Source: Psilocybe cubensis
Lineage: Eukaryota
Length of the DNA: 64,000 nt
Assembly: GCA_017499595.2 (NCBI GenBank)
Contig: CM039007.1
Location: 930,001 to 994,000 of the forward strand
Direction of reading: 5' to 3'
Of this stretch, positions 3,301-55,267 are shown one piece after another. Every line of letters starts with the position of its first letter. Within the stretch, counting starts at the first letter, position 1. The position numbers and the translations under genes are program-made. Below the pieces are notes generated by a model. The model was not told the DNA's origin. It made no database searches and was given only the letters and a program-made list of their open reading frames with translations.

Positions 3301-3878
3301 CAATCCCATCATCGGACTCGTTCGCCATCAACAATATCATGGACGAGGTCAAGGCTTTAAAAGACGAGGCCCGCGCAAGGGAGCAGAGGGACAAAGAGGA
3401 AATGATGGCATTGCGACAACTACACTCCGCCGAAGTGGATGCACTTAGGAGACGACTGTCCTACCTTGAATCACAGAGCCGATATCTAGATTCAGACCGC
3501 TATCGTTCTTCGTCTCGCCACGAAGAATACCATATTTCAGCCCCTGTCGGCAATGATCACCATTACCATAACGAGGGAGGACGACACAGCCGAAGCCGAC
3601 AACCCGCATTCCACAGCGCCAGTGCTCGCGTTCACCGCTCGCCAGTGGTCGGGGATGGTGATCAACCACAGTCGCAGTCGCATACACCTGTGCCAGATAG
3701 GGACAGGAATGGCACCGGGCCCTCCTCGAGCTCCAGTTCGAATCCCATGCCGACCCCATTGAATTCCGAGCGTAGTTTCTCGTTTACACGACCGGGTACT
3801 GATCGCGAGGACGATATTCCTTTACCCATCAAGTCCCAGCGGAAACATATGTTTGCCACTCGTGCAACGTTTGGCTGA
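397..3878 (+). CDS. Large hypothetical protein (~1140 aa): globular N-terminus, acidic stretch, Ser/Pro-rich disordered middle, two coiled-coil-like segments
   Basis: ORFs 397..1098 and 1095..3878 join in frame across a GT-AG intron 1001..1053 (gtgcgt...ctcag), giving ...VLKH-DWKRWCTRGLNGVRMKEQ. No family recognised. Confidence 0.85.
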
Positions 3879-4560
3879 TTTGATTTGACCTGTTTTTTCA
3901 GGATATTAAACACTTCTGCGCCGTTTACGCATACTATTAGTAATTATTCTCTATTTCTCGTTGTGACTTTCCCATCTCGCACGCTTTCCCTATCGTTTTA
4001 TCATATGCGTTGTAAAATTCACTCTTAACCCACTTTTGTGATAATGAAGCCTTGATGTCAATCCGACGCTCACTCCATGCTTTCTTCAGCTTATACATCC
4101 TTTCCTATTTGTCGAGACGTGTATGGTCACTTGTCATCTAAACTTGCAAGCTCCCGTAGTCAGTGTCTCATCTGTATTCTCTAGCTGCTATTCTGTCTTC
4201 AACCAGTGTACTCGTCCTTAACTTTACCTTTGAACAAAATTTAGGCACTGTCTTAACCCCGGATAATCGAATTAAAGCCACAAGAATGGGAAGACAGGCA
4301 TTCGTAAATCAACTTCAAGTTTCAAATCACCGCATTGCCAGCTCCTGGCACCCCCGTTGCATAACCTTTGTTTGACTACTACAGCTGTTGATGGACATCA
4401 CTTGGGCATCCGACACCGTAATCTAAACAATCTCAAACGCCGGAGGAAACGGTCCATAGAATCAGCCTATTAATCATCACTGATCAGCAGTCGGGCTTCT
4501 TTATCACGACGAGGATCATCTACAACCTTCGGTCTTTTCTTGAACTCAGGACATCCCTCT

Positions 4561-6316: not shown

Positions 6317-8233
6317 CTATGTTTTAGCAGACCAAAACTCAATCCCTGCAGAAGTCATAAATAGTAACCATGTCCCAGCAATTAGAAGGGCCGATGTAAC
6401 GAAGAACACCTTCCCTCTCGCCCTCTCGGCAGGAGACACGATCATATCGTGAGAACGCTTTGGGCGTCGTGAATCTAGAGGCTGCAGCTCCTGCGAGACT
6501 TCCAATGAGTTTGGCTCCACGTTGTCGTCCTCAGGTAATGCCTCGTACTGCTCGTACTGGGGAAGCTGCTCCACCAGCAGCTGTTGGCGGAATTGATCGA
6601 ATTTCATCATTGAGAAGACGCCGATCATCTGGATGATATTAAGAGTGAGGAATGCGTTGATCACCTTCTGGATACTGGCCGACGATGTGCGGGACTTGGA
6701 ATCTAAGGCAAGGCCAGCAAGCGTTTGCATGATCGTTGACCCAGAAGACTCGATCTGTGTGTTGATGTGTTAGCTGTTGTGTGTGGTTTCTCAATGAAAG
6801 TTTCCGTGCTCACACTCTTATGGGCACCAAGAGCAGTTGATACATATTGAAGGGGGACCAAATGAGGGACGATGATGACGAGAAGAACTAGAAAGTTACT
6901 TCAGTTATGTGCTGGATGAAGTTACGCAAGTCATGAACTAACGCGGTGAGAAGCCAATTCCAAGTCCGAATGACAGCATAGCAGGAAGAGGCGTACCCGT
7001 GGAAGTTGGAGGGAGTGCAAGCCAGGCATAACACGCCAGTGTAAGGACAGAGGAGAGAAGCAGGAGGCGGTGGACGATAGAGCGCTTTTTTACCCGGTCT
7101 GTTATGTATCCACACTTTCAGAAGTCCCGGGAGGAGTTCAAGTAAGGATATGATTGTTGATTAAGAGAAGGTGATGCTCACGATAGGATATAAGAATGCA
7201 CTTCCCGCCAGTAGAAATGATGATTGCTCGGCTGCCTTGCCCTCAGATAGGCCGTAACGGTGTTCAATAATGTTTCTTGATCGTTATGTCTTCAGTTTTT
7301 ATAACCTTTCTGGGACACGGGCAGCGACACTCACGGAGCAAGATGGGGAAACGGGGTCCAGATGAATCCGCAGAATATGTTGATACCAATATATAGCCAG
7401 AATATATCCCCCATGCTTAGCAGATCTCTGAGTTGTACCTTCCTCTTTGAGGTCACGTCATGCAATGCCTCTTGCTCTGAGAGTCGTCCCGAATTGTCTG
7501 CTTCAGCGCCGATTTCCCCAGCAATCCACTTTTCATACCACAAGTACAATAGGTTAACGGTGAAAGAGAACCCTGCCAAGAATGTTGAGGCAAAGAATGG
7601 TGCGTGTGGGCTCCATTGGGAAAGAGGAAAAGAGACGCGTGCCGATATGAATGATGCACTTTTGCCTGCTACCAGCCCAAGTGCAAGGGATAGCCCTAGC
7701 CCATGATCTTTAAAATAACGTACAATGATGGTTTCTTGCACGACAGCGAGCGGGGAGATTCCCAATCCAAAGATAAACATCCCGAATACCATGGTCTTCA
7801 CGGACCCGGAGAGTTCACCAAGCAACAGAATAAGCTGACCGGTGAGGATGATGGACGTTGCTATAATGCTACTAAGGGAAGTCCCAAGTCTTGCTGCGAA
7901 CAGACCGCCAACTTTGGAAGCAAAAGCTGGTGGTGAGCGGGTAATCTTCTATATAAGCCGCCAACGAACCTAAGGGTGTCCATGTGCTGTTGAGCGCGAA
8001 TGCTGCAATCAATAGCCCAAATTGGCCATTAGTAGTTCCCTTCTCCCTAGAGAGCTGTGATTTCAGAGGACCAAGTGTATTCTGCCCACTGAAAGGAATA
8101 AGAACAGTTAGCTCCATGAAGTCCTTACTGAATCAGTAGACACTTACAAATGACTTCCAATACTCAACGAACACGCACACACCAATGCCAAACCTCTCAG
8201 CAGAGCAACTCTTCTAGAGCTGGGGGAAACCAT
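6317..8233 (-). CDS. Major facilitator superfamily transporter (MFSD1-like)
   Basis: Multi-exon hydrophobic ORFs with MFS-like segments (LACACSLSIGSHF-like start, GPLKSQLSRE, QFGLLIAAFALNSTWTPL, FGLGISPLAVVQETIIVRYF, QTLAGLALD). Start codon and some junctions are approximate. Confidence 0.8.
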
Positions 8234-22723: not shown

Positions 22724-24746
22724 ATGGCTCTTCGACGGTACACAAAACAGGTGGATGGTACTATCCCCGTGCAAGCACTTCTCTATAATGACGAAGAGCT
22801 GTTGGCAAGTCAAGATGGTGTTGGGATATACGATGGGTAAGTAATATGCGAATCGGTGGGTCTGTCACAGGGTCTCTTCCATACTAAAGTATTTCCACCT
22901 TTATTCATTGCATAAGTTCCCAGAAAGCACCGGATCATCAGCTTGGGACGGTACATGTAACCAGCCACCGACTGTTCTTTCTAAATGCACACAAAGCACG
23001 GGCAAAGTCGTTTGAAATGCCTCTGTCGTCCATTGTGCAGACAGAGTACTATGCAGGACTTTTCAAGTCATCAGCCAAGATCACCTGTCATCTTTCTGGA
23101 AATCCCGTTGGTTTGGGTTCAAATGAAGACGGAGCACATGCAGCCCAGTTTGACAGTTGGGAATGTGAAGTGTGCGCATATCGTAATCCACCTGGCTTCA
23201 GTCCAACTGCTGCACGCATTTGTGATCTATGTGGTGTTCCTCGCACGACGGTTCCGACTCCCATTACTTCGGTGTCGTCACATCACCATTCTACTTCTCT
23301 CCCGACGTCCGCTTTATCCTCGTCTACATCCTTACCTTCGGGGTCGCGTTCAGCTTCCTCGCATGGAACAAAGCTAGCATCCATTGCATGCCCCGCATGC
23401 ACCTTCCTCAACCACCCATCCTTACTTTCATGTGAAATATGCGACACTGATCTTCCTCGACTCAGCACGGAACTTAAGTCGGCGCCTTCTTCTCGACCTC
23501 TCACACCCGACTCAGATGATGATGACGCTACACCATCAAAGTCGATCAAGATTAGTTTTCGCAAAGGAGGAGACAAACCCCTTTACGCAGTGCTAAAGCG
23601 TGCCTTGAAAACCAAATCCTGGGAGGTGGGTCCATTTATTTATGAACCATGACAGGAAAAGGGCGTACTTATTCCATGTTCTCGCCTTATACATCAGCAG
23701 AACGGCACGGAGTCCCTGATAAACGCGAACGGTACTGATGCCGACCATCGAAATGCTACTGGAAGGTCAGGAATATGTGAGTGGTGCCTTGTTCTTTTTA
23801 TATAACAGAGCATTCCTGTGAACGTTAAACTTTTTTTGATTTCATCGTTTCGAAAAGCTGGTATTCTCAGGACGGTGGAAACTTCTGCTAAAGGACGAGA
23901 AACGCACATGAAGGATGCCTTACAGGATCTGGAAGCTTTCATGGTGAAAGCGAAAGACATGGTAAAACTGGCTGCGGAGCTCAATGAAAAACTTACAGCA
24001 ATTTCGGCCACGAACGGAAAGGACACTGGTGTGATGTCAACGTCCGGGGTAGCAGAGCCTGAGGAGGCGACGTTCATTCGGTCTTCGCTTTCTCAGCTGG
24101 GACTCAAAATGGAAAATACTCCTGTGACGCTCGATATGATGAAAGACGAGCGAAGATGGATTGACGAGCTTGCCCGCGAGCTTGCACGAGTTTTACAGGG
24201 CTCATCATCTAGTACAGACCAAGCACGCGGTATGATGAAAGACCGCGGAATCATTGCTCTCGACGAGGTATGGGGAGGCTGGAATCGTGCGAGAGGCGTA
24301 GGTGAGCGACTCGCTCATCGTATATTTATAGGCTATTCGCTAAGATATGACGGGTTCCCCTAATTCACTAAGCTCTCATCCCACCCTCGACACTCCTCCA
24401 AGTGGTGCCTCACCTTCCCGCGAATACCAACCCCACCATTTGCCACCGTACATTTTCCTCGGGACTCAATGTTCTGCACACCCCGCCGTACTCGCAAGCT
24501 GCCTTTGGGGCGAGGCTCTCGAGTTTCCTTATGATGGCCGGGCCGAAGACTACAGTGGAAATAGCCACGGCCGAAGACCTGACCGTTGCTCTGGTTTCTG
24601 AGATGATAGACGACGTGGAGAAAGATGGAGGTGTTGTACGAGATGACAGCACTGCTGCTATTACGGGCGGCGGAAGTGGGACTGGTGCAGAGGTGAGATG
24701 GTGGGGAAATGTATTCCAAGGGTATATTTGGGACGGTCAAGAATAA
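22724..24746 (+). CDS. VPS36: ESCRT-II subunit Vps36 (GLUE domain with two NZF zinc fingers, EAP30 winged-helix C-terminus)
   Basis: GLUE elements (QDGVGIYDG, GTVHVTSHRLFF, IKISFRKGG); NZF fingers WECEVCAYRN...CDLC and ACPACTFLNHPSLLSCEIC; DALQDLEAFMVKAKDMVKLA and WNRARGV motifs; several GT-AG introns. Confidence 0.95.
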
Positions 24747-30371: not shown

Positions 30372-30996
30372 ATGTTCAATTCCTTCAAGAGGAAACTCGT
30401 AGGCAACGATCTCTTCATTGTTGGACTGCGAGAGCTGAAATGAATGTGGTTCGCAATGCCACTTTGTTCTCGCATCTAGCCCGAGATATCAATCTTGTGC
30501 GTTCTGGGACATGAGATGCGGTATTGAAAGCAAATTAATATTTCTTCGATGGAATCGTAGCCATAAACCCTCCTCACCGCCTTCGCAAAAAGCGCTGGAG
30601 CTTTTGAAAGCGTCGCTATCTGCACCATACCCACCAGTGACCTCTTCATCATCCTCTTCGACCGAGAACGCAGGGAAACCACTTGACTTCAATCTCGAAG
30701 TCGTCGAGTCTCCACCAACGTCTGACCAGCTCCAGGTCATCCTCTCGTATCTACCTTCGCCTGCAGCAAACCCGTCTTTGGTGTTCCTCTCTGCACACCC
30801 GTCCAATGCACTGAGCGCGGCGGAGCAGCCGACGACGGTGAAGGGTATCGCAGAGCTGGCGCAGAAGAATCCAAATGCAATCAAGTGGCCGATTGTGGTT
30901 GATTGGCTGGATGGCAAGGCGAGTATCGGGAGTGTGGACGGTGTCAAGGGAATTTTGGAGCATTTGCGGAAGAAGAGGGATGGGGAGGTCGAGTGA
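30372..30996 (+). CDS. FMP46: FMP46/DUF1687-like mitochondrial thioredoxin-fold (ArsC-like) protein
   Basis: Exons 30372..30398, 30480..30496 and 30561..30996 give MFNSFKRKLPEISIFHKPSSPPSQKALELL...FNLEVVESPPTSDQLQVILSYL...IKWPIVVDWLDGKASIG. Confidence 0.8.
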
Positions 30997-38577: not shown

Positions 38578-39186
38578 TTGGTTTGGTTCGATCTAGCAGC
38601 ACATATGTATGACTGACGTTATGACTTTACGCCCAGTACTGATTCTGTACGAAATTTATTGTATCCATCAAACGAACAAATCCAATTGCTAACACCCATT
38701 GCATTATTTGAGATAGTCTGCGCGTATTCTCAGTCCTCAACATCATTGGAATCCACAACGGAAAATTCTTACAATACCGGCCTAATAAAGCTGAATAAAA
38801 ACAAAACTTGCATTGAGAAAAACATAATGAAGCAAGTACAAAGCTGAATGTATAATCGAACGACAAAGGTATGAGGTAGACTGAAGGTATCAAGTGGATA
38901 GAGTGAATAAAAAGCATACATTCCAATGATATGAAGCACAGATCCGGGAGTAGAACAAAGATAGATAACAGCACAGGGGGGTTCGTTACAAGTCGTGAAG
39001 GTCGTCAAAAAGAAAGAGCGGAAGTAAGACAAATTCGTGAAGTAAAATGTGGAAAGGCATAAAGGTAAGAATAAATGTTGGTAGGGTAAACTGAAAGCAA
39101 GTCCTTGTACTAGAAACACTAGGCGGAGGTGTTAGTCCGTCGTAACAATCGGAATGCTGAAGTTATCACACCAATAGATGTCAGAT

Positions 39187-42100
39187 TTAGACTTCAGTGG
39201 AGGTAGACGAAGCAACAATCAGGTCGGTGGCCTCAGCAGCATCTGCATGACCTTCTAAAAAGGTTAGTTAATAAGTTCAAAATGTTGTCCAGGACGAAAC
39301 TACATACCTTTGGGTTCATGTTGAGCGGACAGATCGACTTTCTCTGCATGTTGTTCGCCATCAATCACAACCACAGTGGTTTCGGGTCCAGCAGAAGGAA
39401 CTGGAAAAGAGTCGCACAGTTAAAACGTAAGTTGTTGAATAAAATAGTGTGGTTTGACGGACCTTCGATAATTGATGGTTGAGCATCAACATGGACTTTG
39501 CCATTACCAGATTCATCTGCCTCAGCAGCATTCTCAACAGGCGAGAGATCATCATGATCTATGAAAAAGGAGATCAGAGGCGGAATATCAAGATGAACAG
39601 ATATACACACCTTCTACAAGGTCTGAAACACTGGATCGCAACTCCAAATGGTGGCCATTACCATTGCCGTTGAGTACCTCCTCTTCTGCTTCCGATACCT
39701 TCGAGTCAACTTCCAGCGCAAGATCCTCTTCGTCTTCTCCAATGGATGAAATGACAGACTCGAGAGCGAACGGACCACTCGTGGCGAAAGACGCGTCGGG
39801 ATCCATTGTCGAAACATCTGTGATGGGGCTAACAAGATCTTCGAGTTCCTCTGGAGAAGTGGGATCAAGTGAATCTTCGTCGAAGAAGGCAGGCTCTGCA
39901 GCTATGATCGAAATCGCAGGCACTTGTTCAGTTTCGATAGCCGCCGGGTCTTCAGCTGGTGTGGAGTTGATGGTAATGTCAGCTTCTTCGACATCATCCT
40001 CAACCTTCAAGGCTTCAGGCACCTCAATGCTGGTTTCGACGAGAGACTCAGCAGCGGCAGGTTCGACAACGGCAGGTTCGACAGAGGCAGATTTGACAGC
40101 GGGTTCGACAGCGGCAGGTTCTACGGCGCTTTCGGGCGTTGATAAAATGGCATCAACATCAGCGGGTTCCTCTTTAGCTGGTTCTCCAGCTGAGGAAGAT
40201 GCTACCACCTCAGATGAAGAGGCCTCGCTGGCGACGGGAAGAGACATAGTTGGCTCTGGGACAGACTCAGAGGGTACTGATGCTTCGACAACAACTTGCT
40301 CAGTTTCGGGAGACGGTTCCGAAGACTCAGAGACAATGGCAGGGGATCCAGTGGTAACTGGCTCAGACGCCGAGCTTTCAGAAACAAGCGTTTCGGGTTC
40401 AACAGCGGGTGTCAAATTCTCTGTTTCAATATTTTCCTGGTCGTGCTGGTTGTCAGAAGCAACGGTGAGGGCCTCTGTCGAAAGAACTTCTTGTGCTGCA
40501 GGTTCTTCGGGTGCTACAGCATCGATGTTAACGGGAGCTGAATCTACAGTGCTGAGTGTGGGAACTTCAGTCGACTGAACGGGTTCCGCGACAGCAATCA
40601 AATGCGTAGAAGATTCAGCACTGGCTTCAGGTTCAGAGGACACATTCTCAACACGATCAAGGGAATGATGTTCCTCGGTTTCGGTCATTGCTGATTCCTG
40701 GGTGGCGGGTGGAGTAAGCTCGTCAGCTGCTAATTCAGACGATGAAGGTTCTTGCACAGAAACTAAAGGTTCGGTGCCAAGATCGGATGTTGCTGATTCC
40801 TCAACAGTGGGAATGATTTCGGCAATGTCATTCTGAGGCAGGGATGATTCGGATATGGGCTCCGAGATTACTGGAGGGACATCGATAGTTGAAACGCCCG
40901 TGTCAGTGTTAGATGTAGCATCCGTCGATTGAACAGTTGATTCATTAAGTTCATCGAGCGTGGAGGGCTGAGGGAGAGTTTCAGCGAAAGATGGAGTCTC
41001 TGGTTGAACAGCAGGCGAGGTGTCGTCAGATTCTTCAAGGACAACAGGAACGGGTTCCTCAGCAACAGTTTCTTCCGCCACAGGGTCAGGAACGGCTGGT
41101 TCGACAGCAGGAGCAGGAGGCTCAGGAGTGTGTTCAATAGTTCTTTCCACTGAATGTGATATCACCACGTCTGAAACCTCTGCGGGAGAATTAGCAACGT
41201 CGATGTCGGCAGTTGATACAACCTGGTCAACTTCAGATATGAGTGACACTTCTTCAATCACGGGAGGAGCTGATGTTTGGACTTCGAAGGCTTGAGCAGC
41301 CGGATTCGACTCGCTATCGACGACCGTATCATCTAGCGCATTTGCGTGCGCAGGCTTGACCTCATGACTGGATTCGACTGTGGCGGGAGCTTCGACAACA
41401 ATTTCAGCGCTTGGAGGCGTAACGTCGGTTGTCGACGTGTCAGTAGCTACAAGAGATTCGTCTGCTTTCTCAAGGGGTGTTTCTGCAGCGGCGGGGGAAC
41501 TTCCTTCCTCGTTCAAGGTATTGTCGCCTACAGATTTTTCTTCTATCCATAGATATTCAGTATTACACGTTAAGAAAGCGTCAATAAACCATACCACCAA
41601 TATTAACCACCTCAGCTGTTGATACGGCCTGCTCATCTTCACGTACTGAAACCATAGTTAGAATAATCACTTTAACGAGTTAATTTGGGATATATCAAAA
41701 AGTTTCTGCTCACCATCATCGATACGCTCTCTAGAGTTCTCCACAGCATCCTTCAAGTCCGGCTCAGATATACTCAAGGCGACATGTGGGGCAGGAGTTG
41801 ACCCAGAAAGAATGGTAGGATCTTGGACTAGATGACTCTCGTGATCATAAAGGGACGAACTTTCTTCGTGTACTATCGGGAGCTCATTGATAGGAGCATC
41901 CTCGATGAGGATGGTAGTGTGAGTTGAGTCGTCGGGGACGACTGGGACCACGTTCACATCAACGAGTGGTACAGGGGGGAGATCGACCAATGCTTCTGTG
42001 CGTGAATCTTCCGGAACAATGATGGATTCTGTTGTGGGCACACTGGACACAATATTGAGAATTTCTGCTTGTCCTTCAGAGGGCTGAGCATCTCGAGCAA

Positions 42101-45100
42101 TTGCTTCTGTAGGAGGATTATCTGAGTCTGTGAGATTTTGTTCAACAAAAAGAGAAGCATCTTGTGTGGCTTCTACTGGATCCACGGGCAGCAGGTTGAG
42201 AGTAGGGTCATTCACGACATCATCGCTTTGTTCTTGTTCTTGGTGAGCAGGGAGCTCGGCTGTTTCCGGGGTGTTCTGTAACGACACTTCATGAATATCA
42301 GACGAATAACAGAAAATACTGAGCTGACCTCTACAGGACCTTTCGACTCCTCAATCTGTTCAACGACAGGCGTGCCTTCACTGGCTTCTGTGATGACTGG
42401 TGTCTCCAACACTGGTTTGCACTCGACGATACCAATCTCCTCAATGACAGGAGTTTCCTCGACGGCTAGGGTCTCCTCATTGGCTTCATCGATGCCAGAT
42501 GTTTCTTCGACGGCAGACTTTTCTTCGATAGCGGGAGTGACCTCAAGAACATTTCCTTCACCAATAGGCGTATTATCAACAGCTTGCTCGATGACATGCT
42601 GCTCACCGACAGCAGGAGTATCCTCAAAAACAGGAGTTTTGTCAACAGTTTTGTGGACGGCAGAGGTATCTTCAGCGACAGTGGAATCTTCATTGGCAGG
42701 AGGCTCCTCGATGGGTGGCGTCTCCTCATTGGCTAGAGTTTCAGCACCTGGCGCCTCCTCAACAACTAACAGTTCTCCAATGGCAGGAGTTTCCTTGGCT
42801 AGCGTCCCAACCAATGGTGTCTCCCCGATAACTGTTGTCTCCTCGGTAGCAGGCGTCTCCTCAATGGCAGGAGTGTACTCAACCGCAGACATATCCGAGA
42901 CGACAGGAGTCTCTTCGACGGCAGCAGGCATGTCCTCAATAGTAGAGCTCTCATCAACAGCTATCGTTTGTGCGATGACGGGAGTCTCTTCAACAGCAGG
43001 AGGATCCGAGACTACAGCAGTGTCCTCAACAGCAGGCATATCCGAGGTGACAAATACCTCTTTCACGGCAGAGGCCTCCTCAACAACATGCGTATCTGAG
43101 ACGGTAGGAGTGTCCTCAACAGTAGGTGGCATATCCAAGACGGCAGGTGTCTCCTGAACGGTAAGTGTCTTCTCAATGGCGGGCGTCTCCTCAACAGCAG
43201 CGGTGTCCTCAACAGCAGGCATCTCCAGAACAGCAGGCATCTCTAGAACAACAGGCGTCTCCTCAACAGTAGGTGTTTCCTCCACAACAGACGTCTCCTC
43301 AGCAGCAGGCGTATCCGAGGCGGCAGATGTCTCCTCAACGTCAAGTGTCTCTTCAACTACAGGAATGTCCTCTGCAGGTGTTTCCTCAACGGCAGGTCTC
43401 TCATGGACTGCAGAGGTTTCTTCAACAGCAATTGTCTTTGTCTCCTCAACAGCAGGAGTCGGTGCGTCCTCAACAGCAGGCGTCTCCTCAGTAACAAGAG
43501 TCTCCTCGACGGTAGATATCTCCTCAACAGGAGGGGTCCCCTCGACAGTAAATGACTCCTCAGCAAGATGCGTATCGGACGCGGCAGATGTCTCTTCCAC
43601 GGCAGGTGTCTCCTGGACTACAGGCGTTTCCTCAACGGCAATTGTCTCCTCGACTGCAGGCATCTCCTCGACTGCAGACTTCTCCTCAACTGTAGGTGTC
43701 TCCTCGATAGCAGGCTCCTCCTCAATGGCAGATGTCTCCTCAACAGCGGTTGTCTCCTCCACGGCGGGTGTCTCCTCCACTGCGGGTATCTCCTCGACTG
43801 CAGACTTCTCCTCAACTGCAGGTGTCTCCTCGATAACAGGCTTCTCCTCCACGGCAGGTGTCTCCTGGACTGCAGGCGTTTCCTCAACGGCATTTGTCTC
43901 CTCGACAGCAGGCATCTCCTCGACTGCAGACTTCTCCTCAACTGCAGGCATCTCCTCGACTGCAGACTTCTCCTCAACTGCAGGTGTCTCCTCGATAGCA
44001 GGCTCCTCCTCAATGGCAGATGTCTCCTCAACGGCGGGTGTCTCCTCAACGGCGGGTGTCTCCTCAACGGCGGGTGTCTCCTCAACGGCGGGTGTATCCT
44101 CAATGGCAGATGTCTCCTCCACTGTGGGTGTCTCCTCAACTGCAGGTGTCTCCTCAATGGCGGATGTCTCCTCCACTGTGGGTGTCTCCTCAACTGCAGG
44201 TGTCTCCTCAATGGCGGATGTCTCCTCCACTGTGGGTGTCTCCTCAACTGCAGGTGTCTCCTCAATGGCGGATGTCTCCTCCACTGTGGGTGTCTCCTCA
44301 ACTGCAGGTGTCTCCTCAACCGACTTCTCCTCAACTGCAGGTGTCTCCTCGATAACAGGCTCCTCCTCAATGACAGATGTCTCCTCAACGGCGGGTGTCT
44401 CCTCAACGGCGGGTGTCTCCTCAACGGCAGGTGTCTCCTGGACTGCAGGCGTTTCCTCAACGACATTTGTCTCCTCGACAGCAGGCATCTCCTCGACTGC
44501 AGACTTCTCCTCAACTGCAGGAGTTTGCTCGACAGCAGGCTTCTCCTCAATGGCAAATGTCTCTTCGACGGCAGAGGTCTCCTCGATGGTAAAGGTCTCC
44601 TCGACTGCAGGCGTTTCCTCGATTACGGGCGTATCGGTGGCGGCAGATATCTCCTCGACGGTAGAAGTCTCCTCAACGGCAAGAATTTCCTTAACTGCAG
44701 GTGTCTCTTCAAGTGCAGGCGTATCCTCAACTCCATGCCTATCATCAACAGCAGGTGTATCGTCAACAACAGGTGGCGTATCCGAGGCGGCAGTTGTTTC
44801 CTCAATAGCAAGCCCAGAAACAGGAGTCTCCTCAACGGTAGATACATCCTTAACAGCAGGAGTCTCCTCAATTGCAAGGGTCTCCTCAACAACATGAGTC
44901 TCCTCAACAGTAGGTGTCTCCTCAACAACATGAGTCTCCTCAACAGTAGGTGTCTCCTCAACAGCAAGTGTCTCCTCAACTGCAGGTGTCTCAATAGCAT
45001 GAATCTCCTCGAGGGTAGCTCTCTCCTTAACATCAGAAGTCTCCTCGACTGTAGAGGCCTCCTCAATGGCAGGGATGTCCTCAACCACAGGTGTCTCCTT

Positions 45101-48100
45101 AACTCCAGGCGTATCCTCAACTCCAGGCGTATCCAGAGCAGCAGATGTCTCCTCAACTACAGGTATCTCCTCAACAGCAGGCGTATTGGCAGGGGTGTCT
45201 TCAATAGCAGGTGCGTCCTCAACAGTAGGCGTCTCCTCAGCAACAAGAATCTCCTCGACGGTAGACGCCTCCTCAACTGCAGGTGTTTCTTCAACAGCGG
45301 GTGCATCCTCAACAATATGCGTCTCCTCCACAGCAGGCGGAATGCCCTCAACAGAAGGTGTATCAGCGACGGTAGGTGTCTCCACAATGGCAGCTGTCTC
45401 CTTTTCCGCAGGTGTCTCCTCTTCAGCAGGCGTATCCTCAACAACAGCAGTTTCCGCAACAGAGGGCGTATCCACGACGGTAGGAATGTCCTCAACAACA
45501 GGAGCGAAAGGCGTTTCTGCAATAGTAGGAGTGTCTTCAACAGGAGGCGTATCCGAGACAACCGGGCAGTCCTCAACAGCTGGCGTATCAGCATGGGAAG
45601 ATAACTCATCAACTGCAGGACTGCCCTCAACAGCAGGTGTATCCAAGACGGCAGGATTTTCTTCAAGGATGGGAGTCTCCTCGAAGGCAGGTGCCTTCTC
45701 GATAGCTGGCGTCTCTTTAATGGCTATTGTCGTATCCAATGGCATCTCCTCCAAGTCAACGGCCGGTGCCTCCTCGATGGCAAATGTTTCCTCAACAGCT
45801 GGTGCCTTTTCAATGGCTTCCTCAACAGCAGGTATCTCCTCAATGACATGTGTATCATTAACGGCGGGAGTTTCTTCAGTGACCAGAGTCTCCTCCACGC
45901 CAGAACTCTCCTCGATGGCTGGCATGCCCTCGATAACAGGATTTTCCTGCTCAATCGGCGAAGTCTTTTCAATCAACAAGGTCTCTTCGATGGGTGACGT
46001 CTCTATGACTGTTGGAAAGTCTTCTGTAGGACCTGAAGCCTCCTTCGATATATATTCCGCTGACGGCCCAGGGAATGGAGTGACTTTCGCAACAGGAGTT
46101 GCAAGTTCTTCTGACTGGACGACATCGACAACCAGGTCGGACTCCGCGATCGGAGCAACATGAGCTTCAGTTACATTGCCTTTGGAATGGACATTTTGGA
46201 CAACCTCCGAAACCTGTGAATCCTCCACAGGAGACACTTTAGCGATAGTTGGAAGCTATGCGCGGTGTTAGCTATGCGCAAAACACCATGAACAGAGAAA
46301 ACTCACGTCGACATTTGATTCAGTAATTTCAGCAGAATCACTTCCTAAAATGTCTTCAACATTTGGAGTATCAGCAATGGCCTCCACAGCATTATCCTGA
46401 GGAACAATGAGATCAGAAGTAGCAGGTTCCTCGGCAGCGGCACCACTATCAGCCGCTATGCCTTGAGGCGGGAATTCTTCACTAGCTGTAGCATTGTTTA
46501 CTGGTGCCTCCAAAGTTGGCGCTGAAACCTCCACGGCTGATAGCTGATCGTCATGAGTGGCGTCTTTGAATTGACTATCAGCAACTGGCTCTGAGACATC
46601 AGTAGTAAGTGCTTCATTATCCTGTATATAGTCGTCAATAATTGATATCGAAGATAATTCCACGACGACAGGTACCTCGTCTTCCACTGCAGCCTCTTTC
46701 TTATCAACCACAATCGTCGCTTGCTCGGTGGCCAGGCTTTTCTCCTCGACAACAACATTTTCATCCTCAGCAACAGATATTTTCCCTTCGACAATAGGTG
46801 TTTCCTCCTCGACAACTGGCTCGCCCTTTTCGAAATGCAAAGTGTGGTCCAATTGTTCCTCCACACGAGCTGGCTCGATATCTTCCTGCTCGACAGCAGC
46901 AACGTCCTCCTCGGCGCTCAGTTCATCCACATCAACAGCTGGCGTTTCCTCCACGAATGGTGATTCGTCTTTGGCAATTTGTTGCTCCTTCTCAGTAACC
47001 TGTGATACCTCAATATGTGTCTGCGATGACTCGATGACAGCGGGGGATGTTTCGATAACGGAAGTTGGCGCTTCGAGAATACCTGCAGACACAAATGGTG
47101 TTGCATCTTCGGTATTCAAGGTTGCTTCGTCATTGGCCGCGGGTACTTCAACATGTGGTGTTTCGACCTCATCTTGTCCCTCCACAACGTCTGTAAGATG
47201 TTCTTGTGCAACTGCCTCGTCGACAGGCTCTTTGGGCACTGCAGCAACAGATTCGTGTAGTGCTACGATAGGGGGTATCACGGCTTCAGGGATTGGTTCT
47301 TGATCTTCGACATCGCCGACAGGTTCTTCAGAGACTTGCTCGTGCACCTCGACAGCTGGTGATTCAACTTCCGCAATGAGTGTTTGGGGTTCGGCGACCG
47401 CAGAGGTATCTTGTGATTTAGTCTCCTCAACGGCACTAACATTCTGAAGTTCGCCATTAACGATAGGTGTTATTTCGGTAGCCGGAGGTTCAATCTGCTG
47501 TATAGAAACACTGGCTTCAGTAACTGACACTCGCACTGAAGCTTTTGTGACTGATACCTCAGGTTCCGCGGCAGGAGCCTCAACGATAGGAGCCTGATAA
47601 TCCGCTTTGAAGGGTTGTAATTCAACCCCATCGTCCTGGTGTTCAGCAACAGGGGGTTGGTCTGATTCAGGGATATATTCAGTAGCTAGAGATCTATCCA
47701 CTTGATCATCAAGTTCAGCTGTAACTGGAATATCAGAAATTGGAACCTGGGACAGGTTTTCAGGTTTAGAAGCATCCGAAACTTCGGCAACTGGGGTTAG
47801 GATATCTGTAGCTGGCACTTCGGGTTCGACAGCTTCCGAGACTGGAGAAGACGCCTCGACAGCAGGAGGAATTTCTGCATTTGAAGGGAGGTCGCCAACC
47901 TCAGCAACAGGAGCAGGGGTTGGAGCATCAGCATCTAAAGCTTGAGGTTCGGAAACTAAAATATCAGCAACAACGGTCGACTCCTTGGCCACCGTTACTG
48001 GTGTCTCAGCGGAGTACATAGACTGGCTGTCGACTGGAAGTGGGGGCACCTACGTGCAGAATTAATACTATGAAAAATAATGTAATCGTGTAAACACTCA

Positions 48101-51100
48101 CATCGTCAACATTTGGTTTAATATTTTCAGCAATCTCGGCATCCGATACCTCTTGTTGTTTATCTTCAACGTCGGGGACAACAGCATCCACTTGTACAGG
48201 CTCGGAAACAACATCCTCCCTGGTTTGGTCAAGTTGAATTGAAGTCGGTTCCTCCAGGGAGGGCGTTTCATCGGTCACATCGACTGCAACTTCCGACGGT
48301 ACAGGGGCTGGTTCAGCCAAGAGATTGTGTTCTGCGACGTGATCAGGCTGAACTTCATCTCCAGAGTGATCAGCGGGATTGACTTCGAAGGATGATTCCT
48401 CCAGAATATCGGAGGATGCATGCTCCAGTACCTCCGCCTCTTCTGCATTGAGTTCGTCGTCGAGCGGAGGAATGGCATTCAAAACCTGAGAAGGAACAAT
48501 CTCCTCAACCGGAATGATGACTTCTGTCGGCTCGGAATCTGCAGAAGCTTCGGGTTCGGTATCAGAGGCGATCTTGTCGATGGTGACCCACGAATCAGGC
48601 TCCGCAGATGGGGTCTCAGAAAGAGCTTGAGTAGCCTCGGGTTCATTTTGCTGAGCTATAGCTTGCTCAACGATGGGTGCGGCTTGAGCCTCGGCGATGG
48701 CTTCTTCCAACGTGACTGATTGAGATTCCTGTTCATGTTCAGAAACAGTTGAGGTGCCGATTTCGACAGGAACCGAAGACGGGTCAGCGAGGGTTACAGA
48801 ATCTTCCTCAGCAGTTTGAATAACGGTTGACAGTGTTGGAACATCCACCGTTTGAACAACCTCTGGTACCTCTACATCAGTGCCTGAAACTGAATGCTCC
48901 GCAACAGGCTCCTCAGCATGGGTTGCAAGAGGCTCGGCATCCTGGATGTGGTCCTCAATCACTGGTGTTGGTGGCGCCTCCACGATAGGAATATTCTCGA
49001 TGACGGGCGCCGTTTCTTCAACCACAGGGGTTTCTCTTTCCACAACGGCCGGTGTTTCCTCCAGAACAACTGGTGATTCCTCAATCACTGGTACTTTCTC
49101 TCCGGCAGCCGGAGTTTCCTCAACAACAGGTGATTCCTCGATTACTGGTGCAACCTCGTCAAGAGCTGATTTCTCCTCCACTGCAACAGAAATGACGGGC
49201 GCTTCTTCGACGACCGGTGCCTCCTCGACCAGTTGTGCTTCCTCGACCACTGATGCTTCCTCAACCACTGATGCTTCCTCGACTACTGCGGCTTCCTCGA
49301 TTATTGGTGCTTTCTCAACAGCAGCCGGTGTTTCCTCAACGTCAACTACAGGTGTTTCTTCCTCCTTAACGTCTGGTTCCTTCTCAACTGCTGGCGCCTC
49401 CTCCACGACTACTGGTGCTTCCTCCTTGACCACTGGTGATTCCTCGACCACTGGTACTTCCTCGACCGCCAGTGCTTTCTCCTCGACGGCTGGTGTTCCC
49501 TCAACAACTGGCGCTTCCTCCTCGACGACAGGTGTGTCCTCCACAATGGCAGATTTCTCCTCTACTGCACCGGAACTTGCCTCGTCAACAATCGCTTCTT
49601 CCTCTACACGAGCTTCCCCATGTTCCTCGACAATCTTTTGCTCAGCAACCGGTTCTTCTTCCACCACAACTTCCTCCTCAACGACTGGCTGTGCATCCTC
49701 GACAGCTGGGGGTTCTGGCGATGCTAGTTCGGTGGTTTCTTGCTCCTTATCCGTAACCCGTGGTTCTTCCTCAATGCTCTCCTGCGCGGCGTCAACATCA
49801 ACTGAGGGAGTTTCGGTAATCGAGGTTGGCGCCTCGGTAAGATCTGCTGCCTCAACAGGCGCAAATTCTTCAACATTCGACGTGGCGACTTCGTCAACGA
49901 CGGCAGCGGTTTCAGTTGTCGTAGATGGCAATTCGTCAACAGCGACGGGCGCTCCAACAACGGGCGATTCGAGTTCGTTTGATTCAACCACTACCTCTGC
50001 AACCTCGGCAGGGTCTTCTTCCACAGGTTCCTCAACGGCAGGTTCGTCCACAACGGCAGGAGCTGTGGCAACAGGTTCTTCGGCCGCAGTAGCAGGCGGC
50101 ACAGACTCGATGACTGGCTCTTGAACTTCCAATACTACTGCACTTACACGCTCTTCAGAGATTTGCTCAAGTGCTGGAACTTCTGTTTCCACGTCTGTGG
50201 CGACTGGAACAACGAAGTCATCTCGAGCTTCGGGCACGACAAGGTCAGCGTCTACAGCAGGAGCAACAGCCTCAGCTGTTGGAACTTCAGGTTCCGGTGC
50301 AGATTCGTCCGCTTCAGCAACAACCACCGCAGATGGCGCATCAGCAACTGCAACTTGAGATTCATAGATCGGAACTTCAGATACAGTTGCATTATCGTCA
50401 GTCGATGCATCTTGTGTAAGCACTTCTTCGACAACGGGGGCTTGAGGTTCCGTAGAAGTGAGTTCTGGTTCCACAGTTGTTTCCTGAGCCTCGGACACAG
50501 AGGACACATCCGTCGAGGGTTGCTGTTCGGAGACGGGGGCTTGGATCTCTTCAACTGCAGCTTCATGTTTAGCTTCAACGGGTGCTTCAAGAACAGGGGC
50601 CTCGACTTCCGTTGCAAGAACTTCGGGTTCAGAGATAGCAGGAGCCTCAGTGACAGGAGGAGAGACTTCTGCAGCTGGTGCTTCGGATTCTGCAACTGCA
50701 GCAGGAGTCTCGCTGACTGGTGCAGGCTCCTCAACAGCTGGTGCTGGTGCTTCGGATTCTGCAACTGCAGCAGGAGTCTCGCTGACGGTGGCAGGTTCCT
50801 CAACAGCTGGCGCTGGTGCCTCTGCCTGAGTTTCGACAGCTGGCTCCGGAACCTCAGCGGCAGGGGCAGCAGCTTTAGCAGTAGCAGCTCCAGCGATTGC
50901 AGCTGTAATCGCTGCTCCAGCCGCAATAGCAGCCGTCTCGAGGTCTGGCGTGTCGGTCGTATCAGCAGGCTGCTTCGCGGCCTCGACAGGTTTCTCGATA
51001 GGCTTCTGCGCCTTCTCCGCTTTGGACGACTTGGACTTGGACGGCGCAGCCTTCAGCTGCACAACCTCCTGCTTAGCCTGCTCGGCAGGCTCCTCGATAA

Positions 51101-53478
51101 GCTCGCCCATCTCGCCAACATTCAGCGCTCTCTCCTTCTTCTTGCCTTTCTGCGACGACTGTGACGAGCTCGACGCAGTGCGCGACATGCTCCAGAAGCT
51201 GAAGCGGTTTCTGCCCGACGTCGAGAGCGCAGGGGAGACAGGGCGCGCAGATTCCGGGCGCGGGACAGCTGACGGCGATGGTGGTGGCGCGGGCCGCACA
51301 GTGAATGCCTGTTCAAGAACAAGCCACTTGAGCGTCTTCTGCTTGCCGCCCTCTTGAACGGGGCCGTACAGAAGCTGCGGAACGAGGGTCGACTTGAACT
51401 TGCAGATGATAAAGGTCGGCCATGTCGCTGTGATAGGATCGAGCAGCGAGTCGCTCCAGAAATCGATGAACGCTTCGTCGAGCTCGATGACTTCGAGCTT
51501 GGTAGCGCGGACAATGGCGGTCGCCTCCTTCTTGACAGGGTCTGCAGGCGGAGGGGGCGAGACGGGTGGCACAGGTTCAGCCGAAAAGTCGACGCTCTTC
51601 CTCGAAACGGCTTTGCCGCGCTTGCTCGACTTCCTCGAAAGCGTCGTTGTAACTGGAGTAGTCTTCTCCAGATCCGTGTCGAATAGCGTCGACACGAGCG
51701 GGGCCATTGCAGGCGTCGAGTCGAGGAAACCAGACGCTGAGAACTGCACCCAGTCACTGCCAATAGCAGACGTGGCTGGGGGCTCCGTGGCGGACTTGCT
51801 ATGCTGATGCGACGGCCTGCTCTGCTCGCCAACAGAGAAGGAGTAGCCGCGAGACGGGGACGACACAGGTCTGTCGGTCTCGCCTACAGACGCGGAATGT
51901 CCGCGCGCAAGAGACGGCGAGAGCAGATTAAACACGGGCGATTTCGCCTCCTGTGCTTTCTCCGAGCCTTTGTCTGGGACGATGGAGAGGAACCGGATCG
52001 TCTCGTCGGCGAAGATGTTGCTGAGAGGCGATGGGTTGCTGCCTGTCTTCGATGCAGCTGTAATCTTCGCCCATAGCTCGGCGTATTCTCCACCTTCGAC
52101 TTTAGTGGAAAACGCGTCGGCGAGAATGTTGAGAGGGTGGACCTTCAACTTAGGCTTGCGCCTCTCAGATGATAGTTCGACTTCAATGCGAACGTAAAGA
52201 GCGTCGTAGAGTCGGGTAGTGAAGTGTGGTGGGGATAAAAACTGTACATCCGTAGTAGGTGGTGAGAGTCCTTGGGTATATGGGTATCTTCGTACAAGTT
52301 CGAGTAGACGAACGGGCATGCGTTGGTCGGTAGATTCATCGCTGAGGAATCATGAGATAGGGGTCGTGCTGATAATAATAAAAAATGCAAACTCACCGAA
52401 TTCGAGATAAGAACAAATGTTCGAGCATTCGACCCATGCGTTCCCATCTGGCGTAGAAAGACTTCCAGTCATCTTTGTCCTCCACGCGTCTGGAGGTTAA
52501 CAACCACAGACCGAAAATCTTCGAGAGCTTGCTGCCAGACGTGCTGTTGGCCTCGGAGTGTGCAGCGAGCGAGGAGAATATCTCCAAAGTAGCAACAAGG
52601 AGATCGAGATGCGCTTTTGGCAGGGCCGGAGCCAACTTCTCTGAAAAGGCTTTAGGGGGGTACTCCGCGGCTGCTTCCGCATCAAGGAAAGCCTTGTACC
52701 AGCCGTCGTCGGTCCCAAAGCTGTCGCCCTCCAGCTGGAGGTGACGGAGACCCCATCTGAGGACGGCCGCGACGTCATGGGGTGAACGGGTAGACTCGAT
52801 CTCGGATTCGAAAGGTGACGAGACTAGCGCGGGAGTAAGTGAGATAGCGGTTAGCGGTGTTTTCGGTTCCATAGAATGTATGAATTGGGATAGTAGTCTG
52901 CGTTGGACTTCCGGGGATGCGGAATACCAATGAGGGTGCATTACACCCAGTGTTTCGAGGCCTACATCGATAGTTAGAGACAAATCTAAACTGATAATGA
53001 AAAAAACGTTACCTCTAGCTACAATAGCTTGAGAACAAGCCCTTATCAATACAAGAGCCTCAAGAGGGTTTAAGCGACGTCGTCCAATAATTGCATCGCT
53101 CAGAAGGATGTTGGCGTCGGGGTCAACCGATAAGAAAGATTCGAGTGTGCGCGACGAAGGCTCTCCATTCGACGTCGAAAAGTCGAGCGAAAGTTGGGGG
53201 AGAGGTATCGGGGCCTTGTACGAGACTTGCGGGGGGGACGGACGCGATTTGACTTTGAAAAGGGAGAATCGATTATCCCTCTCCTTTTCCTTTTCCTTCC
53301 CATTCTCTCCCTCGGTCTTGGATCCCTCTAACTCAAGAAAATTGGCAGCACTGGGTGATACATTGGGTGAGATGGCTTCAAATTTACCATCGAGCAGTTC
53401 TCCGGGGCGTAAAGTCGTAGGCGAAGTTTCCGCGTCCTTTTCCTTCCGTCCGAAGACTTTGGACAAAAACGAGTGCAT
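39187..53478 (-). CDS. Giant (~4,600 aa) protein: N-terminal Msb1/Mug8 (DUF1708, RhoGAP-like) domain plus very long acidic E/V/A/P/T-rich repetitive tail
   Basis: ATG 53478 (MHSFLSKVFGRK). In-frame GT-AG introns 53012..52962, 52396..52342, 48101..48050, 46306..46256, 42328..42276, 41713..41646, ~41594..41543, 39610..39559 plus two more 3' introns join the large minus-strand ORFs; stop at 39187. Head motifs SPHDVAAVLRWGLRHL, WYKAFLDAE...YPPKAF, LAAHSEANSTSGSKLSKIFGLWLL, MLEHLFLSRIR resemble the Msb1/Mug8 domain. Confidence 0.85.
42700..45900 (-). repeat. Coding minisatellite: 18-bp unit encoding (V/I)EETP(A/T) hexapeptides, with 54-bp higher-order repeats
   Basis: gtctcctcaacggcgggt-type units; near-perfect 54-bp block (EETPAVEETPTVEETSAI) about four times at ~44105..44320; most homogeneous core 43590..44530. 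Confidence 0.95.
48960..49700 (-). repeat. Second, more degenerate EE(T/A/S)P(V/A)V repeat block
   Basis: VEEAPVVEEAPVI, VEEASVVEEASVVEEA, IEESPVVEETPA units inside the 48102..52341 exon. Confidence 0.75.
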
Positions 53479-55267
53479 CGCGTGTGCCTGCACATACAAA
53501 AAAAAACAGATTGAGTAAGTGGAATTTCGCTTGGAAAAAAGGTGCGTGAACGTGTATCAGTGCACTTACAACCGTAATCCAAGGTCCTTGAGGCCTAGGA
53601 CTGTACCAATGGCTGGCCGGTAGGAGTCGTGGAGGAAAGGAAGGTTGCCTGCAGGCTGCCACGTGCCGTAACCGTGACTGACGGCGGACCTTGAAATCCC
53701 GGAGAAATCGGTGCGACCTTGCTCGCTTAGCAGCTCCTTGGTTCGACCACTTCCAGGCCCAAGGGAACTTCCAGTGACACTAACAGCTCTCAAGGGTTTT
53801 TTCTCAGCACCGTATTGTCCATTTTCTCTCAATATCCTCTCTGGAATATCCACTGTCAATATCTATCCAACAAAACATGCTTTGATTCTCGAACCATTTG
53901 TAATTTGGAACTTGTGCGTCCGAAAGGCACGACATCCCCTCGCAAACAATAAACCAATCATGCTGGGCTCTGGGTCCCATCTGCTTCCATAGCGCCGTTC
54001 TCTAGCCGTTCAAATCACTTCATGATCGAAGCATATGCCACTGTCAGACCTAATCCTGATAATGAACTCTGTGCGAAATGCTCTATTCGGGGGCCTGCAT
54101 CACCGATCCGGGCCAGGCGAGCAGGCATTGGGGCTCGCGAGATAGCTATCAAGCAGTCCGAGTCGATGTCCGCTAACGGGACTGTGTTCAATAAAGCTAG
54201 GCTCCAAAGTTTCATTGACCGTTTTCGAGTTTGTGTGACATGGCGCTTACCCTTGTTATATCCCGGGTCTACTACAGATCATTATAAGTAGCTGAATGAC
54301 AATGTACGTCATTCTGTCCCCTGTAGAACAAACATTAACTTGATCTCTTCATAGACTTGTGTTGCTACCATTATATAATAGATTTCAACCTTTCCAGAGC
54401 AATAAATTAATCATACCACCCACCGGGTATTGGCCATTCACCGAAATCATCCAATCTGCCACCATTCCTATCATATGTACGCTCAGCGATGATATATTTT
54501 AACACAAAGCACCTCTAACTCCCCCTCGTCTGTCTACCATGACCCATTCCAACGGTGCACGTCCCTCCAATCCCAATCTTGGAACCAGACCTCTCCCTCA
54601 AACCCACACAAAGCTTATTCTTCCACTACTTCAAACAAATTCAAACGTACCAGACATCGGCATACAACATATACATAGCTCAGACGTCACAGTAAATAAG
54701 AACGGTCATCACCCAACCGAACACAACCCCGCTGATATCGACCTTATATCAGACGCTCACAGCCCAGAATTACCCTTCCCAGCATCAACGACACCTGCCA
54801 TACATAGACCTTCCCCGCCCACGCACGTCCTTTTCATCGATTTTTACCTTTCATCTATATTTTTCTCTGGGAATATCCTCTCCGCAACAAAATTCCGTCC
54901 CCTCTCCTGATTAACAGCCTGATATCTCATCGAACAGCTCTCCTATCGATCCAACAAATACGGTGCAGTGCTCGATTATCATCACTCATCAACACGGCAG
55001 CATACCTCGCAGCAAAGCACGCCAATCCCGTCTACGAATATAGCAACTTCCTCTCTCGCAAATGCCTATAAAAAGCCCTCGTGCCGTCCACATCTATTTG
55101 CAGCATTTCTGACTTGATCTTGATGCCCTCCCGAAGCAGTCTGTCCAAATACCCTTTGGGTGGTGGGGAGGGAATGTAAACGTCTATAATACCAGGATAC
55201 CCACCGTAAGCCTGAACCCCCCCCCTCCTTGACAAGACACCATTTTCATGCACCCTCCCCCTGCAGA

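Follow-up and report, generated by a model that had tools for sequence, protein, structure and literature searches.

A 4,541-residue protein of Psilocybe cubensis that joins an Msb1/Mug8 head to a giant polyanionic tail, and the range of tail length among its Agaricomycete relatives

Gene structure

The window analysed here is a 64-kb stretch of Psilocybe cubensis DNA (assembly GCA_017499595.2, contig CM039007.1, positions 930,001 to 994,000 of the forward strand), and this report concerns one gene on its minus strand, whose product joins an N-terminal head of the Msb1/Mug8 family to an acidic tail of some 3,700 amino acids (aa). The gene appears as six stop-to-stop open reading frames in series, running on the minus strand from 53556 to 39588 of the window (387, 1,447, 593, 1,347, 227 and 689 aa). 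Removal of 12 introns leaves a single spliced frame of 4,541 aa (~480 kDa), which starts at the ATG at 53478, the first ATG past an upstream stop, and closes with a TAA that ends at 39187 (Table 1).

Support for the splicing comes from contigs of four public runs (X1 to X4) aligned to positions 39000-53800, with 15 of the 19 joints listed. That X1 and X2 are RNA is a guess, not on record, and their contigs are used only for what they bridge. Thirteen segments of 51-68 nucleotides (nt), which read CT..AC on the plus strand and hence GT..AG on the minus, are skipped by contigs of X1 and X2, and the same segments are retained in those of X3 and X4, which are DNA-like runs. A spliced contig bridges each junction between one open reading frame and the next, and the junctions of the splice model agree with those of the annotated Psilocybe cyanescens ortholog. 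With X1 and X2 taken as RNA, the locus is one expressed, spliced gene that encodes a 480-kDa protein. A preliminary description of this DNA, made from its letters alone, had proposed a single gene with "about ten" introns and a product of ~4,600 aa, to be checked by reads across the junctions; the single gene stands and all of its junctions are bridged, while the intron count becomes 12 plus one in the 3' untranslated region (UTR) and the product is somewhat shorter than was thought.

The full gene is spanned by no single contig (the X1 pieces cover 39639-43682, 44935-49572 and 51262-52341), and a predicted 10,821-aa leashin protein of Neurospora proved to be two transcription units (PMC2690989). 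Both facts would suit a locus with more than one product, in which an internal promoter separates a head-bearing protein from a tail-only one, and contigs do not reveal where a transcript begins or finishes. We regard this as the least probable of the alternatives considered here, since both gaps (43682-44935 and 49572-51262) lie where the repeats are most regular, a kind of sequence that short-read assembly fails to cross, X1 depth is present in 30 of 30 bins along the gene, neither a stop codon nor an intergenic-like stretch interrupts the frame, the introns are all short and spliced in frame, and 11 orthologs of 2,533-4,363 aa are modelled as single proteins. As a separate observation, X3 and X4 contigs pass directly from 47798 to 49750, so that 1,951 nt are missing and a single different letter stands in their place; the short side of the join is 34-41 nt and the join is out of frame. 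It is probably a repeat-induced mis-join, a structural variant being less likely.

Table 1. Features of the gene, with positions in the window and residue numbers in the spliced product
Feature	Position	Strand	Residues (aa)	Remarks
Whole coding sequence, ATG to TAA	39187..53478	minus		Joints in X1/X2 contigs, GT..AG ends, open frame
Coding exons 1-7	53013-53478, 52397-52961, 48102-52341, 47558-48049, 46676-47497, 46307-46621, 42329-46255	minus		
Coding exons 8-13	41714-42275, 41595-41645, 39611-41542, 39463-39558, 39308-39400, 39187-39251	minus		
Coding introns 1-6	52962-53012, 52342-52396, 48050-48101, 47498-47557, 46622-46675, 46256-46306			
Coding introns 7-12	42276-42328, 41646-41713, 41543-41594, 39559-39610, 39401-39462, 39252-39307			
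3'-UTR intron	39119-39171	minus		53 nt, GT..AG; begins 15 nt past the stop codon; skipped in X1 and X2
Conserved head	51138..53478	minus	1-745	Isoelectric point 8.9; alignment of 37 heads, PF08101
PF08101 match in exon 2	52405..52701	minus		Profile positions 96-193 of 423; overlaps the borderline PF00620 match
VGEMGEL motif	51099..51119	minus	752-758	Border of head and tail; near-invariant in the family; Lys-rich linker next
Charge-free Ala/Gly/Ile/Thr segment	50877..50936	minus	813-832	20 residues; position conserved across the family
Polyanionic tail	39190..50876	minus	833-4541	3,709 aa, net charge -863
Weaker periodic stretch	48873..49772	minus	~1201-1500	Period 6-7; Tandem Repeats Finder arrays 49201-49562
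Hexapeptide array	42356..45955	minus	~2401-3600	Consensus TPAVEE; Tandem Repeats Finder core 43182-45442
Central module (approximate)	41772..41978	minus	3708, 3769	DLPPVPLVD (aa 3708) and, ~60 aa on, LSGSTPAPHVALSISEP (aa 3769); coordinates worked out by hand (exon map; 41714-42275 holds aa ~3610-3796)
C-terminal module	39648..39788	minus	4399-4409, 4423-4429, 4438-4445	FATSGPFALES, LEVDSKV and NGNGNGHH, respectively
Further NGKVH	39491-39505	minus		
Tail island 1			1639-1754	P. cyanescens aa 1222-1343
Tail island 2			3682-3780	P. cyanescens aa 1456-1556
Tail island 3			4315-4530	P. cyanescens aa 4007-4239

The Msb1/Mug8 head

The head is the part of the protein that can be placed in a known family. 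Exon 2 alone matches PF08101, the Msb1/Mug8 domain, with 46.1 bits (cut-off 23.6), the intact head of an 89%-identical ortholog matches it with 64.1 bits over residues 144-366, and a match is found in 37 of 37 aligned orthologs; the Msb1/Mug8-like N-terminus of the preliminary description, for which a search with PF08101 had been suggested, is thus borne out. The match in a Tricholomella ortholog (50% identical) covers residues 137-666 and profile positions 9-422 of 423, which points to the whole head being the family domain, with insertions. Aligning the first 780 residues of the P. cyanescens protein with 36 orthologs (37 heads in all) gives invariant or near-invariant columns at MxSFLSKVFGRK (the first dozen residues), GLETLGxMHPHW, DWxxFSxSGF, LDEAFIDFWSD and the terminal VGEMGE(I/L)L. 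The P. cyanescens protein aligns from residue 1, with 86% identity over 812 head columns. Yeast Msb1 is a protein of about 1,100 aa.

The same description had called the head RhoGAP-like, and here the outcome is divided: exon 2 lies just above the cut-off for the RhoGAP family PF00620 (24.8 against 24.5 bits), but other cuts of the sequence score 22.6 and 21.7 bits and matches at E<=1e-3 occur in only 7 of 37 orthologs. The Pfam match begins at profile position 48, past the arginine-finger region; the invariant GLETLGVMHPHW may, judged by eye, occupy the place of the finger motif, with His for Arg. Neither the first 500 aa of exon 3 nor the last large exon has a Pfam match at E<=1.

A charge-free segment behind the head

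A short Lys-rich linker separates the VGEMGEL motif from a segment that contains no charged residue (Table 1) and has a Kyte-Doolittle 19-mer mean of 1.73 (up to 2.3 in orthologs). Throughout the family the corresponding segment is Pro-free, rich in Ala, Val, Gly and Thr, and found 40-90 residues past the motif, and it reaches at least 18 aa in 44 of 73 orthologs. Its placement is specific: in the tails of 72 sequences (one ortholog left out), 42 such segments lie within 180 aa past the motif, a zone of 12,673 aa in all, and the remaining 53,901 aa contain none.

This specificity, the length and hydropathy of the segment, and the change from a Lys/Arg-rich stretch ahead of it to acidic sequence after it could be taken to mean that aa 813-832 span a membrane once, as in a type II protein with its head in the cytosol and its tail, which contains Ser, Thr and Pro, outside the cell or in a lumen. 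Such a protein would be an inverted analogue of the wall-stress sensors and signalling mucins that are coupled to Rho GTPases. We consider both the topology and the analogy highly improbable. The residues are mostly Ala, Gly, Thr and Val, and insertion free energies, taken as simple sums over a residue scale, are 0.3 to 4 kcal/mol, never zero or below; the 25-aa stretches that adjoin the segment on either side are both negative (means -1.9 and -4.75); 29 of 73 orthologs have a segment of fewer than 18 aa, and that of several Suillus orthologs contains Asp or Glu. The P. cyanescens model lacks it, with a 24-column gap exactly there, which may be a gene-model error. A signal peptide is lacking, and the Msb1 of yeast is cytosolic and peripheral (PMC3681933). 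A true transmembrane helix is unlikely on these figures, and the earlier statement that no transmembrane segment is evident can be kept as regards insertion, with this charge-free stretch as its footnote. A hinge, a self-association helix or a membrane contact may be its role.

Two other ideas were tried and rejected: that of a ribosomal P-protein hinge, as the PF00428 matches seen in two orthologs lie at residues 29-76 and not at the segment, and that of a tail-anchored ancestor, as the complete short orthologs all keep at least ~50 aa of acidic sequence past it (two orthologs with only 11 and 15 aa beyond the segment look truncated). A G>A difference at 50923 in X1 and X4 changes Ala817 to Val within the segment, leaving it uncharged and more hydrophobic.

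The polyanionic tail

The preliminary description's account of the tail as extremely acidic, low in complexity and probably disordered agrees with what is found. From aa 901 onward, every 150-aa block carries a charge of -0.17 to -0.31 per residue, and none of these blocks has more than four aromatic residues. The whole protein is 17.4% Glu, 12.7% Val, 12.2% Ala, 10.2% Pro, 8.7% Thr, 8.6% Ser and 5.7% Asp, with Lys and Arg together at 4.2%; Pro makes up 11% of the tail. Mean tail hydropathy (0.469) falls below the boundary at that charge (0.497), on the disordered side of the charge-hydropathy line by our own arithmetic. A search of PDB sequences with the tail returns only compositional, TolA-type matches.

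The tail was also described as an EETPAV repeat. A hexapeptide array is real, but it makes up only about one third of the tail: 116 units ending in EE (consensus T-P-A-V-E-E) produce a strong six-residue period that is confined to aa ~2400-3600, Tandem Repeats Finder reports 120 copies of an 18-nt unit at 43182-45339 plus a 54-nt higher order, and duplications of up to 300 nt are found inside the array. The remaining ~2,200 tail residues are acidic and non-periodic. Pfam matches to the array, LED_rpt (PF20854, 145 bits) and the Spt5 CTD (PF12815), are taken as compositional, reflecting a Glu/Pro/Thr repeat. Long open frames of 334-682 aa oppose or overlap the array (43158-44897 and 43556-45604 on the plus strand, 43618-44622 on the minus strand in another frame); their translations are rich in Ser, Thr, Ala and Gly or in Leu, Arg and Cys, and they are by-products of the repeat, for which no gene evidence was found.

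In composition the tail is like the PEVK region of titin, a likeness of design and not of descent, with short degenerate repeats dominated by Glu, Val, Pro and Thr or Ala and with no folded domains. Related Pro/Glu/Val/Thr-rich spring segments of nematodes also resemble it. Unlike PEVK, the tail has about 2% Lys, which makes it a pure polyanion rather than a polyampholyte, and it does not lie between immunoglobulin or fibronectin domains. The role cited for PEVK in PMC2690989 is that of an elastic element in random-coil form.

Relatives and the range of tail length

A word-indexed search limited to proteins of 2,474-5,000 aa finds 11 orthologs among 4,866 candidates: those of Psilocybe cf. subviscida (4,363 aa), P. 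cyanescens (4,250 aa), Hypholoma sublateritium (3,864 aa), Pholiota conissans (3,501 aa), Galerina marginata (3,460 aa), Agrocybe pediades (two, of 3,400 and 2,689 aa), Agrocybe chaxingu (3,129 aa), Cyclocybe aegerita (3,083 aa) and Panaeolus cyanescens (3,033 aa), and one with no species name (2,533 aa). All 11 are annotated as hypothetical, Msb1/Mug8-domain or Rho-GAP-domain proteins. The same query against proteins of 777-2,473 aa gives 49 orthologs; a profile search gives 207 matches, the best 120 of which are 711-2,277 aa long; and a HMMER scan of 1.84 billion representatives gives 232 matches at E<=1e-3, many of them exon-sized fragments. Across the first three of these searches, the species-named matches among those listed (some rows are nameless) are all from Agaricomycetes. 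The head is covered in 72 of 192 stored proteins.

Beyond residue 800, 60 of 60 stored orthologs checked are rich in Glu, Pro, Ala, Val and Thr and net negative, and the acidic tail is seen alike in Polyporales, Hymenochaetales, Boletales and Agaricales; a feature found in 60 of 60 reads as a trait of the family and not as a peculiarity of this gene. A comparison of tail length across Agaricomycetes, which had been proposed as a check, finds an acidic tail in every ortholog examined, with lengths from ~200 to ~3,700 aa, a range of about 15-fold.

The giant tails belong together. In a quick maximum-likelihood tree of 42 heads (support by the Shimodaira-Hasegawa-like approximate likelihood ratio test, SH-aLRT, only), a single Agaricales clade (13 rows, SH-aLRT 100) takes in every protein longer than 3,000 aa, and within it Crepidotus (2,406 aa) branches first. 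Its genera with proteins of this length are Psilocybe, Hypholoma, Pholiota, Galerina, Agrocybe, Cyclocybe and Panaeolus, with tails of 2,300-3,700 aa, and the long-tailed clade has just two short members, a Flammula model that is partial and one from Gymnopilus. The latter (Gymnopilus junonius) has a basic C-terminal stretch unlike any other tail, which may be a read-through artefact or gene-model error. Among the 12 long orthologs compared, the TPAVEE array is present in this species only, and the other 11 long tails are degenerate and non-periodic; because they are non-periodic, the long tails appear to be old and not the outcome of recent microsatellite growth.

Conserved motifs within the tail

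Two short modules recur in the tails of the family. The central module has the consensus [D/E]LP[P/A]VP[L/V][V/I] followed, ~60 residues later, by L[S/T]GxTP[G/A]PxVALSxSEP. Of 72 tails, 34 contain its second half, the TPGP-type motif, where 200 shuffles give a mean of 0.34, and relaxed patterns detect the central module in 67 of 163 stored proteins examined. The C-terminal module combines FATSGPFALES, a degenerate second copy of the TPGP-type motif, with an NG-His motif ~100 residues from the protein end. The pattern NG.{0,2}H is seen in 33 of the 72 tails (1.4 in shuffles), and exact NGH in 24 of 73 orthologs (summed expectation 0.48). Within the long-tailed clade the C-terminal block is alignable, LNGNGHH being preceded by LEVDSK and the degenerate TPGP-type motif.

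Motifs this far above chance, together with the C-terminal block, raise the prospect of a two-ended tether, with the head at the cortex or septum, motif modules that bind a cargo (the vesicle cloud, a nucleus or the septal pore cap) and an elastic leash between. A precedent for the design exists in Leashin (LAH-1/LAH-2) of the Pezizomycotina, a giant protein whose ends are conserved and whose linker, an acidic P/E-rich repeat (PEEVELPASP, charge -1088) that is proposed to be elastic, is poorly conserved, and whose product LAH-2 is found at the hyphal apex and septal pore (PMC2690989). The comparison with Leashin made in the preliminary description is apt as a comparison of design, in the conserved N- and C-terminal ends and the acidic Pro/Glu-rich variable linker, and at -0.23 per residue the tail is about twice as densely charged as the predicted Neurospora protein (-1088 over 10,821 aa). 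The N-terminus of Leashin binds the Woronin-body protein WSC, whereas the head here is of the Msb1/Mug8 family (PF08101), and no homology is claimed. Basidiomycota are not known to have Woronin bodies or a Woronin-body/Leashin system. A tether of fixed span does not fit the spacing of head, central module and C-terminal module, which ranges among relatives from tens to thousands of residues, and by the regular expressions used the motifs are absent from about half of the orthologs. We rate a two-ended tether as rather unlikely.

Divergence of the tail

Compared with the P. cyanescens protein, the tail shows three alignable islands only (Table 1), and its best-conserved part is the last ~220 aa, at 52% identity, a further point in favour of a tether. 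The distance from the head motif to the central module is 2,955 residues here and 723 in P. cyanescens (~2,200 apart), and that from the central module to the C-terminus is 834 residues here and 2,769 there, yet the totals of the two congeners (4,541 and 4,250 aa) differ by 6%. Elsewhere, Polyporales have ~90-100 residues ahead of the central module and 450-650 behind it, and many Agaricales have 560-850 ahead and 50-140 behind. A module whose position is not conserved speaks against a precise ruler set between fixed sites, and in favour of bulk or overall length as what the tail would supply.

The four runs differ at 302 single bases, of which the 40 best supported were classified. Among these 40, all 12 in the head are synonymous, as are both of the two in the linker; from aa 813 on, 6 are synonymous and 20 non-synonymous, against 25% synonymous expected at random. 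The head is under strong purifying selection and the residues of the tail are nearly free. Among the indels listed, those in coding sequence are of 9 nt (39957), 9 nt (50874) and 93 nt (47626-47718), a contig piece skips 36 nt (49228-49263), and indels of 1, 3 and 4 nt are located in introns or 5' of the ATG, with one exception that is taken up below. The 93-, 36-, 9- and 9-nt differences are in-frame tail-length polymorphisms between strains. An open frame, the acidic charge and the terminal motifs are kept, as is, in the long-tailed clade, a length of thousands of residues.

Near-neutral evolution of tail residues could also be read as a sign that extreme length is functionless, a short acidic tail being ancestral and functional and the extra 2,000-3,000 aa a tolerated, drifting expansion. 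The species-specific array of ~1,200 aa, with its 18-nt units and internal duplications, the in-frame length polymorphisms between strains and the breadth of tail length across the family are all in keeping with such drift. We find this doubtful, as the frame stays open over 11 kb though a single change can turn a Glu codon into a stop, nine complete models of one clade all exceed 3,000 aa and are non-periodic, hence old, truncations are selected against by a conserved C-terminal module at the far end of the tail, and two congeners have expanded opposite spacers while their totals stay nearly equal.

A possible function

Yeast Msb1 is found at sites of polarised growth, where it binds Cdc42, Rho1, Boi1 and Boi2, and its N-terminal RhoGAP domain is taken by the authors as a binding surface and not as an active GAP (PMC3681933). 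The protein described here is like Saccharomyces cerevisiae Msb1 and Schizosaccharomyces pombe Mug8 in the PF08101 match of its N-terminal head above the curated cut-off and, at most at the borderline, in a RhoGAP-like signal. It is unlike yeast Msb1 in having the 3,700-aa tail with its charge of -863 and its family-specific motifs; a polyanionic tail is not described for yeast Msb1 in the available part of PMC3681933.

The reading we prefer, tentatively and at somewhat less than even odds, is that of a polarity-site head that carries a polyanionic bulk projection or spacer. Like yeast Msb1, the protein would dock with its head at sites of polarised growth (hyphal tip, septum or clamp) by way of Rho-type GTPases and Boi-type scaffolds. 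Its tail would work through physical bulk, as a self-repelling, extended polyanionic projection that would fill space below the cortex or keep other things out of it, and would hold out its short motifs to distant partners. Selection would then act on charge, disorder, an uninterrupted frame and total length, and would leave residue sequence and spacer placement free. By our own arithmetic with generic polymer scaling (prefactor 0.55 nm, exponents 0.6-0.7), the resting tail would span ~76-173 nm and, at full stretch, ~1.4 um, against ~23 nm at rest for the 500-aa tail of a typical ortholog.

With Glu and Asp at 23% of the protein, or ~1,050 carboxylates per molecule, the protein might instead serve as a high-capacity cation sink that buffers Ca2+, polyamines or basic proteins at the tip. 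The family of the head predicts a polarity-site location for this as well, and the His-containing NG motif could conceivably bind metal; the Pfam scan detected no known Ca2+-binding motif or family, and the data do not separate a sink from a bristle, the two being not exclusive. A sink seems quite improbable to us.

Several points weigh against the preferred bulk projection or spacer. The RhoGAP likeness of the head is only borderline, and a search of PDB sequences with the head finds no relative and no RhoGAP structure, only one chance match. The literature searched, which was thin on subscription journals, gives no localisation, binding or phenotype for any basidiomycete member. The conserved short tail motifs fit a specific tether at least as well as a passive bristle. 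The apparent compensation of length rests on one species pair, and a single internal transposition of the central module would also keep total length, with no selection involved. The models of other species may be truncated, and short-read assemblies may have collapsed arrays, both of which bear on the range of tail length. The contrast between head and tail polymorphisms has a small basis, at 40 of 302 differences. Finally, the exception among the indels listed is a 1-nt deletion at 50618 in X3 and X4, in a repeat-rich part of coding exon 3 with raised depth, which would put the frame out unless a nearby change makes up for it or the deletion is an artefact of assembly.

A more far-reaching form of the proposal, in which we have little confidence, is that the Agaricomycete Msb1-type proteins would constitute a natural length series (tails of ~200-3,700 aa) of a single device, a Rho-site anchor with a disordered polyanionic chain, in which selection holds total length and neither sequence nor motif placement, and that in the Psilocybe/Hypholoma/Agrocybe clade the tail would have become a cortical spacer or leash of more than 100 nm, with a partner that reads the LPPVP/TPGP and NG-His modules, as a counterpart of Leashin that arose independently, on a polarity protein.

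Surroundings of the gene

Elsewhere in the window are ordinary fungal genes: exons of Vps36/EAP30, of the endosomal sorting complex required for transport II (ESCRT-II), at 22888-24363 (plus strand), a fragment of a major facilitator superfamily (MFS) transporter at 7331-7948 (minus) and a DUF1687 protein at 30439-30996 (plus). A 955-aa open frame at 1011-3878 (plus) has no Pfam match, the open reading frames that adjoin the gene give no informative Pfam matches, and the 64 kb contain no tRNA genes.

Significance

The gene is not new, in that its relatives are annotated as hypothetical proteins. We have not found described the family-wide architecture, the giant tail shared by a clade, the motifs within the tail or the pattern of constraint, and the same literature search yields no account of the acidic tail or of the function of a basidiomycete member. 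MSB1 is mentioned in a proteomic study of Ganoderma (PMC6941157), and a Lentinula phosphoproteome treats domain enrichment (PMC7751435). A comparative survey scored Msb1 as mainly ascomycete (PMC6054225), and the basidiomycete branch is therefore diverged and unstudied.

Whether long disordered regions act by polymer physics (length, charge and excluded volume) or by sequence is an open question. A conserved head combined with a natural range of about 15-fold in tail length makes selection on length directly testable in this family, whose members are candidates for a part of hyphal polarity or septal organisation that is as yet unstudied in Basidiomycota.

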